In this document: positions 68 through 6,506 of the stretch, one piece after another
Position numbering within the stretch: the first letter of the stretch is position 1
Layout: the number at the start of each line of letters is the position of its first letter
Virus genome (UHGV): UHGV-1580203
Origin: a virus
DNA: 11,573 bases
Direction: 5' to 3' (one strand)
The notes under the pieces: model-generated
Databases searched by the model: none
The model's input: only the letters and a program-made list of their open reading frames with translations
What the model was told of the DNA's origin: nothing
Made by a program: the position numbers and the translations under genes

Positions 68-1231
68 TTACGCCTTCTTTATATCCTCCATAATTCCACA
101 GTGGGACATATTTGGGACATTATCACCAAAAATGTCGTCTATTTTCCTTGCATGCTCTGTCAAATGATTAGGCGCAAGGTGAGCATACCTACGAACCATT
201 TCTATGGACTCCCATCCGCCCATTTCCTGAAGCACAGATAATGGGACGCCTGACTGGATCAGCCAGCTTGCCCAGGTGTGTCTGAGGTCATGGAAACGGA
301 AATCTTCAATTCCTGCACGACGACAAGCTGATAGCCATGATGTCTTGCTGTCGATGCGCATCTTCCTGACCGCAGGCGTTGATGTTCCATCTGCTCGCTT
401 AGCCGCCTTGGTATGTACAAACACCCATTTGTGATGCTTGCCTATTTGATCACGCAACACTTTACAGGCGGTATCGTTCAGCGCCACACCAATGGCGCGG
501 TTTGATTTGCTCTCTTCTGGATTCACCCAGGCAACTCGTCGCTGCATGTCGATTTGTTGCCATTCCAGATTTATGATGTTCGACTTTCTCAGACCAGTTG
601 CCAGCGCAAACTTGACGACAGATTTCAGTGGTTCGGAGCACTCATCAATAAGGCGTTTTGCTTCCTCCTTTTCCAGCCATCTGACTCGCTTGTTTCTGAC
701 CGCTGGTATCTTGATGACAGGCGCTTTTTCCAGCCACTTCCAGTCGCGTTCTGCAGCACGGAGAATGGCCTTTATCATGGCAAGATGCTTTGCCTTTGTC
801 TGAGTTGATACTGGCTTTGGTTCATAAACAGGCGGTTCTTTACCTTTCCTGATGGCGGCCTGAACTTTCTGTTTCCATATTTCTTTCGTCTTTCTGTTAT
901 GCATTCTGCTTACAGCAGAGTAAATCTTTGCCTCCGAGATATCTTTAAGCCTTATACCCTCAAAATGTTCAAGCCAGAACTCAATCCGGCTTTTATCTGA
1001 ATCGAGAGATTTTTTATCAGCTTTTTCCTCAAGCCATCTTAGGCAGGCCTCTTCAAAAGTGACATCAGGTAAATCCCCTAGCTTTTCTACTCGCCAGAGT
1101 TCTGCTTTTCGCTTGTCGTGCAACTCCTGAGCTTGCCGCTTGTCCTTTGTGCCAAGAGATTCCTTAATTCGTTTCCCGCCCGGGAGCGAATACGAGGCAT
1201 ACCATATTTCATTTCTGCGGAAGAGTGACAT
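68..1231 (-). CDS. int: Tyrosine-type phage integrase (P22/DLP12 IntD-like)
   Basis: 387-aa ORF ending 15 bp from the tRNA 3' end; C-terminal [15 protein letters not shown] and RRYAHL motifs typical of tyrosine recombinase R-H-R-Y catalytic core; RBS GAGGAAA upstream of ATG at 1231; N-terminus MSLFRR...WYASY resembles P22-family Int by recollection. Confidence 0.95.
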
Positions 1232-4169: not shown

Positions 4170-4460
4170 AAAAAGAGCGGTGCCAGCCGGAAGCAAGTGT
4201 ACAAACTGGTACCGCCAAAGCAGTGGCTGTTGTGGTGCCGGGTGCCTCCCGGTGCCTGGCGAAGGTTGCACACCAGGCGGGTGGGTATCCACAGAAGGTC
4301 GACTGTCAGCCTCAACCTTAACCCGCGTGCGCTGAGCCGCATTCACCACAACGCTAAGGATTCTCTCTGGTTGAAAATACTTAGCTGTTATGTGCCTGCT
4401 TTTAGCCACATCAGGCGAGGTGGACCTGGTTATTCCCCAACAACAAGGATTCGGTTAATC

Positions 4461-4489
4461 TTGATACCCCCAATAACATGGTGATTATT
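4461..4489 (+). promoter_or_regulatory. Candidate promoter for the 167-aa plus-strand gene (-35-like TTGATA, A/T-rich -10-like GATTAT/TTATTT)
   Basis: TTGATA at 4461-4466 and a -10-like hexamer 16-18 bp downstream, ending a few bp before the ATG at 4494 (transcript would be near-leaderless); by eye only. Confidence 0.3.
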
Positions 4490-4493
4490 TAAG

Positions 4494-4997
4494 ATGGACA
4501 AATTTGATAGAAGTGCACAAAGGCAGTTGTTACAAATACTGTATGATGCTCATCCTTATGAAATTTCTGATGATGCGTTGCAGTCTGTTCGTGACGCATT
4601 TGGAGATGATAATGTCCTAATTTCGAACTTAATTTATCTCGAAGAACATGGCTTGATTAAGAATGCTCTTGATTATTACTTGGATGGCATAAATATAAAT
4701 ATTCCTGAATTAAGAATTACTAAAGATGGAATTGATTTCATTCGTGATGATGGAGGTCTTAAAGCTATTCTTGGGATTATGACAATAAGATTGCATGATG
4801 AGACTCTCTGTGAACTTGAACGTATCATCAATAGTTCTACTTCTGCCACGACTGAAGATAAGAAGAAATTACTCTCTCAGCTTCGAACGCTTCCTGCCGA
4901 CGCCATAAAACAGCTGACGATTCGATTACTTGGTCAGGGGCTTGACCATCTGCCGGACGTATTTCACGTAATTCAAAAAGCCCTCCATTCTCTGTAA
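4494..4997 (+). CDS. Orphan 167-aa protein, unknown function (AT-rich moron in the immunity-adjacent slot)
   Basis: Uninterrupted 167-codon frame through visibly A/T-rich DNA with A/T-ending codons, opposite in orientation to the flanking early-left operon; followed by a plus-strand intrinsic terminator at 5175-5198; no family recognised. Confidence 0.6.
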   Translation: MDKFDRSAQRQLLQILYDAHPYEISDDALQSVRDAFGDDNVLISNLIYLEEHGLIKNALDYYLDGININIPELRITKDGIDFIRDDGGLKAILGIMTIRLHDETLCELERIINSSTSATTEDKKKLLSQLRTLPADAIKQLTIRLLGQGLDHLPDVFHVIQKALHSL

Positions 4998-5130
4998 ATT
5001 CTGATTCTGGTCGGATTAGACAGAATCGTCCCCATCCGACCTGCTTACTAAGTAGAATCCAGAATTCGTCTTGTTGGTTGGTGCTGATAAAAAATCCATT
5101 AGGATGAACGTAAGCACAGAATATGACCAT
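4837..5130 (-). CDS. Possible small protein (97 aa) antisense-overlapping the 3' end of the 167-aa gene; uncertain
   Basis: ATG at 5130 preceded by AAAGAGGGTTCT (GAGGG RBS, about 5-nt spacing); first ORF downstream of the putative pL; overlaps the convergent gene by about 160 nt, so it may be a shadow ORF. Confidence 0.25.
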   Translation of the reverse strand: MVIFCAYVHPNGFFISTNQQDEFWILLSKQVGWGRFCLIRPESEFTENGGLFELREIRPADGQAPDQVIESSAVLWRRQEAFEAERVISSYLQSWQK

Positions 5131-5159
5131 AGAACCCTCTTTTGTTACGGGGATACTAA

Positions 5160-5174
5160 GATTGTTAAAGAGCT
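5160..5174 (-). promoter_or_regulatory. boxA-like element (AGCTCTTTAACAATC on minus strand) immediately 3' of the antisense hairpin
   Basis: Minus-strand sequence GCTCTTTAACAAT is a 13-nt contiguous match to the rrn-type boxA consensus as I recall it (TGCTCTTTAACAATTTATCA); lies on the pL-transcribed strand directly after the 5198-5175 hairpin. Confidence 0.45.
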
Positions 5175-5198
5175 AAGCGTCCTGTAGGGCGCTTTTTT
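5175..5198 (+). terminator. Rho-independent terminator for the 167-aa gene transcript
   Basis: Stem AAGCGTCC (5175-5182) / GGGCGCTT (5187-5194) with one G-U pair, loop TGTA, then run of six T (5193-5198). Confidence 0.6.
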
Positions 5199-5364
5199 GT
5201 TGCTAACGAATCATCCTGGACTTCATATGCCCCAGGCGGCTACTTCGTGGGCGTCCTGCCTGTTCGTTTTTGACATTTACTGACTGCTTACGACACATGC
5301 ACCGTGTTGCAACCAGATTTTGTTGTAATCCTGTAGTTGGTCTGGAACAAAAGATAAAATTAAA

Positions 5365-5401
5365 TTGCGAGATATGCAAGTGATATTTGCGAGATATGCA
5401 A
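5365..5401. promoter_or_regulatory. OL-like operator pair: two identical 15-bp sites TTGCGAGATATGCAA separated by 7 bp, with overlapping leftward promoter (pL-like)
   Basis: Seen: exact direct repeat at 5365-5379 and 5387-5401; same TTGCGNGATANGCAA pattern as the site at 6169-6183 in the cI-cro intergenic region; minus-strand TTGCAT -35-like hexamers lie within the sites. Confidence 0.6.
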
Positions 5402-5410
5402 ATTTATAGG

Positions 5411-5435
5411 TAATAAAAAGCCACCTTTCGGTGGC
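5411..5435 (-). terminator. Rho-independent terminator downstream of cI
   Basis: On minus-strand RNA: GCCACC-GAAA-GGUGGC (6-bp stem, GNRA-type tetraloop) followed by UUUUUAUUA; 20 nt downstream of the cI stop. Confidence 0.65.
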
Positions 5436-5455
5436 CGATGGATGGGATATTGAGG

Positions 5456-6148
5456 TTAATTATGTCTCTTAAGGGTTTGCGACTGACTGATTAAGACCTT
5501 TCCAAAGACCATGAATCGGTGTTCGTTTTCGCTAGTAATTCCCCATTCACGGTAAATCTGGTTATCAGAAATCACCAGCAGTTTGTCAGGAATCATTTGA
5601 AGTCTTTTAACGTATATTTTGTCATCAAAACCAAAGACATATATACCATCACCATCAAACTGATTGATGCTGACATCAACGAAGATGAGATCTCCTGGCT
5701 CAATGGTTGGACACATACTGTCCCCACGAACGTTGATAACTTTGATGTGATTGGCTGGTCGTCCGCCGAACATTGATACAGCATTATCAGTTCTGTATTC
5801 GATGGCATGAATCACATCAATGACATCACCGCCCTGGATAAGGCCATTTCCCGCACTGGCACTGATATCCAGCATTTCAATACGGAACACATCCTTCACC
5901 TGCGCAACATCCTCATTATTACTGTTTTTATATACAGTATTACTTTTGTGGGCAGAGGTAAAGAGATCAGCAATATCAACACCTAAGCTCTTGGCAATAT
6001 TACTCAGTGTTTGTTCGGTAAATTGTTTTTGCTTACCCGTTTCTAAGCGCGAGATGTTCGCCGCATCTACTCCTATCGCTTCAGCGAGATCGGCGATTTT
6101 CATGTTCTTCGCTTGGCGAAGTTGTCTGACTCGGTTTCCTATGTTCAT
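5456..6148 (-). CDS. cI: CI-type prophage repressor (N-terminal HTH, C-terminal LexA-like S24 autopeptidase domain)
   Basis: 230 aa; N-terminal HTH (VRQLRQAKNMKIADLAEAIGVDAANISRLETGK); C-terminal GDSM (catalytic Ser) and VKRL (catalytic Lys) motifs of the S24 family; divergent from a cro-like gene. Confidence 0.93.
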   Translation of the reverse strand: MNIGNRVRQLRQAKNMKIADLAEAIGVDAANISRLETGKQKQFTEQTLSNIAKSLGVDIADLFTSAHKSNTVYKNSNNEDVAQVKDVFRIEMLDISASAGNGLIQGGDVIDVIHAIEYRTDNAVSMFGGRPANHIKVINVRGDSMCPTIEPGDLIFVDVSINQFDGDGIYVFGFDDKIYVKRLQMIPDKLLVISDNQIYREWGITSENEHRFMVFGKVLISQSQTLKRHN

Positions 6149-6245
6149 GCGTTTATTACATTTCTTTATTGCGTGATAAGCAAATCAACTTGCGCAAAAT
6201 AATTGCGTGAAATAACATGCATAACGCGCAATATTTGGAGGGCGT
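6149..6245. promoter_or_regulatory. OR region with divergent PRM/PR-like promoters and about three operator sites
   Basis: Sites fitting TTGCGNGATANGCAA at 6169-6183 (best), 6203-6217 (weaker) and 6217-6231 (inverted); minus-strand -10-like TGTAAT (6155-6160) placed so the cI mRNA would start at or near its AUG (no SD upstream of cI); GGAGG RBS at 6237-6241 for cro. Confidence 0.65.
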
Positions 6246-6506
6246 ATGCAATCACCATTACGAAATGTGCGTAAGGCGCATGGTTTCACTTTGCAGCATG
6301 TTGCTGCGGGTGTTCAAGTCAATCCAGCGACGTTGAGTCGTATTGAGAGGCTGGAGCAGATTCCATCTATCGAGCTTGCAGAACGTTTAGCCAATTTTTT
6401 TAAGGGTGAAGTCAGCGAAATGCAGATTCTTTATCCGGCACGTTTTCAATCTAGCCAAAACCAGAATGGGTTTAAACCACAGGAACAGGAGGTGAACCGT
6501 GGGTAA
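6246..6506 (+). CDS. cro: Cro-like HTH transcriptional regulator (XRE family)
   Basis: 86 aa; HTH segment GFTLQHVAAGVQVNPATLSRIERLEQ; first gene rightward of the operator region, divergent from cI; GGAGG RBS. Confidence 0.88.
   Translation: MQSPLRNVRKAHGFTLQHVAAGVQVNPATLSRIERLEQIPSIELAERLANFFKGEVSEMQILYPARFQSSQNQNGFKPQEQEVNRG

Follow-up and report, generated by a model that had tools for sequence, protein, structure and literature searches.

The window analysed here is an 11,573-nucleotide (nt) stretch of DNA from the UHGV virus genome UHGV-1580203. At about positions 4387-5200, it carries a mobile two-gene cassette located in a variable slot between the pL promoter, with its OL operators, and the early-left genes of a prophage. 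The cassette is composed of gene A, which an initial annotation of the sequence had singled out as ORF167 (ORF, open reading frame), and gene B, which lies on the opposite strand and shares its 3' part with that of A. We propose that A encodes an effector expressed in the lysogen, probably directed against other phages, that B encodes its antagonist in the lytic cycle, and that the convergent overlap of the two genes makes their expression exclusive. This reading is built by analogy with known prophage pairs, and we give it a probability of about 45%. The coding features of the cassette are:

4494-4997, plus strand: gene A, 167 amino acids (aa), ATG start

5130-4837, minus strand: gene B, 97 aa, ATG at 5130, Shine-Dalgarno (SD) sequence AAGAGGG at about 5137-5143

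4837-4997, both strands: dual-coding overlap of 161 nt, A codons ~115-167 and B codons ~45-97

A is present where the initial annotation had placed it, as an uninterrupted ORF with an ATG start. That annotation viewed A as a single-gene unit followed by an empty 3' stretch. In fact, the stretch holds a conserved minus-strand gene, B, at 5130-4837. B is the first ORF downstream of pL, and is convergent with A and co-directional with pL. Alignment over five genera of the 180 nt between A's stop codon and the terminator reveals a minus-strand pattern that looks coding. The B ORF of 12 loci from 9 genera encodes 85-118 aa, starts with an ATG preceded by a good SD sequence, and extends over 125-218 nt of A. 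Outside A, the 44 codons of B have saturated synonymous change (pS 0.75-1.0) and low non-synonymous change (pN 0.09-0.38), which argues for purifying selection on B.

In the overlap, position 3 of A codons faces position 2 of B codons, and position 2 of A codons faces position 3 of B codons. In loci with B, the synonymous divergence of A falls from 0.80 upstream of the overlap to 0.43 inside it, an effect explained by the frame offset, which pairs the third position of A codons with the second of B codons. In loci that lack B, the corresponding part of A retains a value of 0.78. When A was shuffled among synonymous codons, the antisense frame was open in 0-8% of the shuffles per locus (at most 1.4% in 9 of 10 loci). 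Of 113 A loci, 97 have the antisense phase of B open over 90 nt or more to either side of A's stop codon, and for the other two phases the counts are 3 and 4; the median open length of B's phase is 181 nt beyond A's stop and 167 nt inside A. An iterated hidden Markov model of B also matched in 97 of the 113 loci. Sequence comparison thus indicates that B is a translated gene, and its antisense overlap with A is deeply conserved. The pairing of A with B is conserved across beta- and gamma-proteobacterial phages.

In every search made, B was found only beside A, and A is without B in about 14% of loci. B is not annotated by RefSeq in the relatives examined, and gene calls of B account for only 68 clusters of a database of 5.8 billion proteins. 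B is called once A is broken, as in Klebsiella quasipneumoniae CP064044 (locus L123, 3001-3630). There, A is split by a frameshift and B is intact and annotated. The pair lies between the Q antiterminator gene and the holin gene. In Halomonas phage vB_HboP_4908 (locus L008, 1763-2311), a gene is annotated opposite an A homologue detected by tblastn; this is probably a wrong-strand call.

The product of A was first taken for an orphan. It matches phrog_3983, a phage protein family of unknown function, over its full length (E 2.6e-59, residues 1-165 on profile positions 1-164 of 165). In an exhaustive profile search, the family came to 1139 representatives at 50% identity, of which 923 have E <= 1e-10; nearly all representatives are 155-175 aa long. 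Relatives are encoded on at least 567 IMG/VR contigs, and homologues are found in 14 sequenced phage records with Escherichia, Klebsiella, Edwardsiella, Pseudomonas, Acinetobacter and Halomonas hosts. About 14 N-terminal extensions, considered as possible domain fusions, are not conserved and each contains a normal internal start; they were rejected as miscalled starts. Pfam DUF2513 (PF10711) is matched by 30 of 87 relatives and YjcQ (PF09639) by 5 of 87, and the window protein itself is below any threshold for both. On these profile matches, A would be distantly DUF2513/YjcQ-like, from which it differs by an extra C-terminal helical domain and a DDGGL motif. We found no paper giving a function for DUF2513 or YjcQ, the papers on YjcQ being uninformative, and no paper mentioning WP_000357060 or DUF2513. 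The link of A to these two families is therefore silent on mechanism.

AlphaFold models of A (predicted local distance difference test 77.6, and 87.8 with a deeper alignment) contain a confidently predicted winged helix at residues ~6-84, a low-confidence stretch at 87-94 and a predicted C-terminal domain of four helices. The low-confidence stretch overlaps DDGGL (residues 85-89), the most conserved motif of the family, which forms an invariant hinge. Invariant residues of A include Y48, D81, D86 and G88. The best fold matches are the winged helices of MarR, PadR and TubR and are generic only. Nothing in the fold search matched the C-terminal domain. Compared with MarR, only the winged-helix core of A matches, not the dimerisation helices, and the basic DNA-reading surface is not found. 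In 22 members of the family, the net charge of the winged-helix domain ranges from -1 to -13, which speaks against ordinary DNA binding by A. The window protein has an isoelectric point of 5.0, a net charge of -9 and no sign of membrane segments, in keeping with the soluble, acidic product foreseen from the sequence. The profile and structure search recommended at the same time yielded the phrog_3983 family and the winged-helix fold, and no defence-family match.

The immunity region lies to the right of the cassette and comprises:

5365-5401: two exact 15-mers TTGCGAGATATGCAA, the OL operators, which mark pL

5419-5436, minus strand: terminator of the cI transcript

5456-6148, minus strand: CI-type repressor, with helix-turn-helix (HTH) and Peptidase_S24 domains (Pfam)

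6246-6506, plus strand: cro-like gene

Two TTGCGAGATATGCAA-related copies are also present in the cI-cro intergenic region, at 6169-6231. The real sequence has four TTGCGAGATATGCAA-type matches, a number reached by 0 of 200 shuffles. Together, the copies at 5365-5401 and those between cI and cro place OL/pL at ~5340-5401, directed leftward. The promoter hexamers of pL, judged by eye, are weak. With the operators at 5365-5401, pL lies to the right of A, where the initial annotation had put it. A sits between pL and the early-left genes and opposes both; it is opposite in strand to every early-left gene, as also stated at the outset. The early-left operon, on the minus strand, includes yfdT/yfdR/yfdQ/yfdP-type genes like those of CPS-53 and e14.

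The same layout is observed in most members of the family. B has an upstream neighbour on its own strand in 81 of 97 loci, and the gene to the left of A is opposite in strand to A in 78 of 95. In most cases, A is thus the only antisense gene within an operon to which B belongs, an arrangement called a 'noncontiguous operon'.

The candidate signals around A are:

4387-4477, plus strand: conserved upstream element LE (borders from blastn and alignment)

4461-4488, plus strand: promoter-like pair TTGATA-16-GATTAT, judged not credible

4480-4485, plus strand: GGTGAT, probable SD sequence of A, 8 nt before the ATG

5175-5198, plus strand: intrinsic terminator, a plus-strand-specific hairpin followed by a T-run

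The TTGATA/-10 pair had been taken as the promoter of A. It is a 9/12 match and no better than chance: two such matches are found in the region, against 5.2 +/- 2.6 expected from shuffles. Its -35 is not conserved, being CTGGAT or CTGGTT in relatives. Its -10, GATTAT, overlaps the probable SD sequence GGTGAT and ends 5 nt before the ATG. GGTGAT is complementary to the 3' end of 16S rRNA. A leaderless mRNA starting from the GATTAT -10 was also considered and rejected, an SD-like motif being present in 39 of 53 distinct upstream regions of the family, with no enrichment of TANNNT beside the ATG.

The ~80-100 nt upstream of A (4387-4477) accompany A/B into different phage backbones, in Salmonella, Kluyvera and Mangrovibacter. 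The right part of this element, 4424-4477, is found with plus-strand cargo only, including plus-strand cargos other than A. It therefore probably holds the real promoter and the 5' untranslated region of A. A hairpin of the upstream element, CCAC...GTGG (4405-4423), is replaced by CTAC...GTAG in a Salmonella relative (locus L038, 4912-4930); the change looks compensatory, in this one case. Another promoter-like sequence, TTTATA-16-AATAAT, is found on the minus strand at 4672-4699, inside A and antisense to it, and may simply reflect A/T-rich sequence.

The 5175-5198 signal had been described as A's own intrinsic terminator. The hairpin and T-run are indeed there: the fold is worth -12.1 kcal/mol on the plus strand, where it includes a G-U pair, against -7.5 kcal/mol on the minus strand, where a C-A mismatch occurs, and the T-run is on the plus strand only. 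It is not A's own, since it is located 178 nt beyond A's stop codon, inside the flank 5159-5271 that is common to other cargos. It is lost only in a sibling prophage whose cargo is on the minus strand only. Of the promoter and terminator that a moron would bring with it, we therefore find a strand-specific terminator in a shared flank and no credible promoter. A structured nut- or put-like RNA in the right flank or in the upstream element was also looked for and rejected, with fold z-scores from -0.86 to +1.47 and no Rfam match.

A transcript of A can end nowhere before 5175-5198, after an antisense run over the whole of B and its ribosome-binding site. In the other direction, transcription from pL must read B, and then runs antisense through A and its upstream region. 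The geometry suits the silencing of A by convergent pL transcription that had been imagined before B was recognised, as pL fires leftward through B and then antisense through A. Mutually exclusive expression of A and B thus appears to be built into the geometry of the locus.

In the proposed mechanism, a promoter within the conserved upstream element would drive A in the lysogen, and stray expression of B would be suppressed by the A transcript. The effector would bind a protein or a ligand via its acidic, probably non-DNA-binding winged helix and the DDGGL hinge. Its most likely role would be interference with superinfecting phages. Upon induction, pL, or a late or tail operon in other phages, would express B, and A would be shut down by transcription collision and antisense pairing. 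B, acting as a dedicated antagonist of A, would let the prophage's own lytic cycle escape. The roles of effector and antagonist are assigned because of analogy with studied systems, together with the dependency and orientation patterns of the two genes.

One such system is Tai/Ati, which inhibits tail assembly. The defence gene of phi80 lies inside the Q operon on the opposite strand and is expressed constitutively by the lysogen, and the counter-defence gene is co-directional with the operon (PMC11364771). AtiSalB, a tested Ati, bound its cognate TaiSalB, overexpression of Q reduced TaiEcA expression, and deletion of ati selects insertions inactivating tai (PMC11364771). The pair is found in phi80, other prophages, phage-inducible chromosomal islands and P4-like satellites (He et al. 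2024, PMC11364771). By analogy, A/B would likewise associate an accessory gene expressed in the lysogen, opposing a lytic operon, with a small adjacent co-directional partner that counteracts it. An antisense gene inside a lytic operon next to a co-directional partner, as in Tai/Ati, is what the orientation counts given above (81/97 and 78/95 loci) describe for A/B. Both families also occupy moron hot spots including the Rz-terS gap, both occur in beta- and gamma-Proteobacteria, and in both the partner is present in some carriers only.

The two systems are not homologous. The hhalign probability is 0.2% for the 87-sequence A profile against TaiEcA, the only Tai version compared, and 0.2% for the B profile against AtiEcA. 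TaiEcA (phi80 orf63) belongs to phrog_5483 and AtiEcA (orf64) to phrog_20632, whereas A belongs to phrog_3983. In phi80, tai and ati are divergent with a 20-nt 5' overlap, whereas A and B are convergent and share ~160-170 nt of coding sequence at their 3' ends. Of the A loci, 86% have the partner, compared with 5 ati-like versions for 57 Tai homologues. Neither WP_000357060 nor the gene A 5' sequences that we tried are present in the supplements of the Tai paper (PMC11364771).

A second analogue is the Tha/Ith pair of 80alpha. Its HEPN defence protein, Tha, has a 'small overlapping antisense gene' as inhibitor, and the two are expressed in mutually exclusive states (PMC11087260). Tha is, however, an HEPN RNase encoded in the cI operon, whereas A has no HEPN match in Pfam and is predicted to consist of a winged helix and a helical bundle. 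The gene that stands alone in antisense is the inhibitor in 80alpha, where the defence gene runs with the cI operon, but usually the presumed effector A in A/B. The Tha/Ith host, Staphylococcus aureus, belongs to another phylum than the A/B hosts. TerI/anti-TerI of Listeria is a further prophage pair of the same logic. Finally, A shares with rexAB of lambda and sieA/sieB of P22 a repressor-adjacent position and presumed expression in the lysogen, and the Acinetobacter homologues of A are located at the exact rexAB position, downstream of cI. In contrast with these genes, to which it has no homology, A encodes an apparently soluble protein without membrane segments and, in the window, opposes both cI and pL.

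Several observations weigh against a defence effector A with an antagonist B. A gave nothing significant in Pfam, NCBIfam and PDB sequence searches, and a search of PADLOC-DB 2.0 gave one weak match, CARF_m5 (E 0.013), and recognised no defence model. B has no match in Pfam, PHROGs, PADLOC, NCBIfam or PDB. There is no consensus sigma-70 site in the upstream element, and A's promoter was not located. Just upstream of B, 41 of 98 loci have a minus-strand terminator-like site, so the expression of B may depend on antitermination or on a promoter of its own. In Acinetobacter phages, A is downstream of cI and oriented like it, and the exception is B instead of A. Finally, the finding of A alone in some loci and of B never without A fits a toxin B with an antidote A equally well.

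In this toxin-antidote or host-takeover alternative, B would be a harmful or host-manipulating protein made with the lytic operon, and A the lysogen's antidote to leaky B. A solitary A would neutralise the B-type proteins of incoming relatives. The layout, which implies mutually exclusive antisense expression, would suit such a pair, and A, with a winged-helix/HTH domain and a partner-binding domain, resembles many antitoxins. The K. quasipneumoniae locus, with A frameshifted and B intact, is double-edged: it indicates that the pair can decay from the A side, but it makes a strongly toxic B less likely. No toxin family shows similarity to B. Type II toxin-antitoxin systems are co-directional operons with a recognisable toxin fold, whereas A and B are convergent and overlapping and no such fold was recognised. 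The prophage modules of this layout that have been studied experimentally are defence and anti-defence pairs. We consider the toxin-antidote alternative unlikely.

The fold matches to MarR, PadR and TubR raise another alternative, in which A would be a DNA-binding winged-helix repressor switched on in the lysogen and B a small anti-repressor made on induction, as in Gifsy-type or Mnt/Ant-type systems. In Edwardsiella phage GF-2, translation of A is coupled to that of an Arc/Mnt-like repressor gene next to ant. Repressor genes are nearby in 11 of 31 loci, and one phage record labels an A homologue 'putative transcriptional regulator'. However, the winged-helix domain is strongly acidic in nearly all members, and the putative recognition helix of the window protein (residues 39-51) begins with DDN and contains no lysine or arginine. 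The match to MarR is restricted to the winged-helix core, without the dimerisation helices, and A also occurs in regions of tail, lysis and packaging genes, with no evident target for regulation. This regulatory alternative appears quite unlikely.

That A is a single-gene moron, as the initial annotation had it, with the antisense ORF a by-product of A's sequence or an RNA-level element, is very improbable: RefSeq annotates A only, B is rarely called as a gene (the 68 clusters), the plus strand at 4998-5140 folds better than all 200 shuffles (z = -2.68) and similarity in the overlap alone can stem from the conservation of A, as in locus L014, but the free codons of B have saturated synonymous and low non-synonymous change with the ATG and SD sequence conserved in 12 loci, the antisense frame is open far past what A's amino-acid sequence allows and in one of three phases only, and the constraint on A's synonymous sites is gone in loci without B.

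The cassette is horizontally exchanged accessory cargo, as had been supposed from its position and composition. Both flanks of the slot occur together in 848 of 5426 complete E. coli genomes, with A/B-type cargo in 76 of these, and the G+C content deviates. It is 0.33-0.39 over 4351-4950, against 0.52-0.59 directly to the left, which bears out the A/T-richness noted for A. The variable presence and deviating base composition of a moron in Hendrix's sense are thus both found. From blastn borders, the left flank ends at 4465-4477, and the right flank begins at 5159, or at 5205 in one case. Sibling prophages carry other cargo between the same flanks, in line with the expectation of a variable slot: phrog_7681 in UTI89, an ECs1072-family gene and phrog_1744 in FT130 (phrog_5286 with phrog_1744), and phrog_3195 in strain 2014EL-1346-6. 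An empty slot, with left and right flanks adjacent, was found in none of 60 sampled records. The flank to the right of the cargo is described as:

5159-5271: conserved right flank RE, common to different cargos and immunity types

Within it, the 67 nt at 5205-5271, just downstream of pL, are invariant in four aligned prophages that differ in cargo and repressors. They have no significant fold on either strand and no Rfam match. Parts of the right flank (4998-5340) are matched in 1529 of the 5426 genomes.

The cargo of FT130 (locus L011, 2346-2958, equivalent to 4478-5158 of the window) is also a convergent pair, composed of the ECs1072-family gene (144 aa, plus strand) and the phrog_1744 gene (68 aa, minus strand). 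The 3' ends overlap by 29 nt, and the phrog_1744 gene is preceded by the SD sequence GAGGAGG. This pair may be a second module of the same design.

Elsewhere, members of the A family are found downstream of cI in Acinetobacter phages, downstream of a Mnt/Arc-like repressor gene in Edwardsiella GF-2, in the Rz-terS gap in PhiR49_2, beside tape-measure genes and in the Q-holin gap. These are classic lysogenic-conversion positions. A conserved partner was also sought among the neighbouring genes and rejected: only repressors, tape-measure proteins and terminases recur, and they are markers of the insertion site. In Klebsiella phage ST13-OXA48phi12.5 (locus L007, 4511-5485), an A homologue without B adjoins a gene of 135 aa and a gene with a DUF4065 domain on the other strand. 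DUF4065 is an antitoxin-type domain. These two genes could be another accessory module.

The window as a whole covers the left arm and the immunity region of a lambdoid prophage of CPS-53/e14-like type, integrated at argU. Its left end comprises:

1-52: 3' part of a tRNA-Arg(UCU) gene (anticodon loop, T-arm, acceptor end), with the integrase gene directly after

68-1231, minus strand: integrase

Positions 1-52 are the prophage attachment site. This tRNA remnant fits the integration into argU that had been suggested; no complete tRNA was called in the window by ARAGORN.

To the left of the cassette, the minus strand at 4231-4350 has a partial match to Rfam STnc100 (motif at 4233-4254; 35.6 bits, for a gathering threshold of 47; E 2.8e-6), which includes an exact CACCGGGAGGCACCCGGCACCA stem-loop. 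The match lies in a G+C-rich stretch that RefSeq annotates as a 'frameshifted hypothetical protein' in every relative and as ymfH in e14 of K-12. It may be that the early-left transcript has an RNA element here and that the stretch is not a pseudogene. A search downstream of pR gave no second STnc100-like motif.

B is a hidden gene, missing from the RefSeq annotation of the relatives examined, from Pfam and from PHROGs, and annotation pipelines at present do not see the A/B pair. When long antisense protein-coding overlaps are claimed for bacteria, the claim is usually disputed. A/B offers a clean case of antisense dual coding, with 113 loci and two internal controls, the other two antisense phases and the loci without B. 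Simple mutants can test the proposed model, as C4904T turns W76 of B into a stop and is silent in A (Ala137), and as the start codon and SD sequence of B lie outside the ORF of A.

Tentatively, A/B may represent a new and widespread family of prophage modules combining defence with self-immunity, inseparable by recombination and never co-expressed, with an antisense protein-coding overlap that is among the longest and most broadly conserved known in bacteria or phages. If so, the same ~170 bp would encode the effector on one strand and the antagonist on the other. A strategy to search for such modules would be to look for antisense genes that stand alone in lytic operons and have a conserved partner; FT130-type cargo is maybe another such module. 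If the analogy with Tai/Ati and Tha/Ith holds, A/B would be a third, unrelated protein pair with the 'defence plus antisense self-immunity' layout described in 2024, suggesting a general rule for prophages that carry self-harming weapons.

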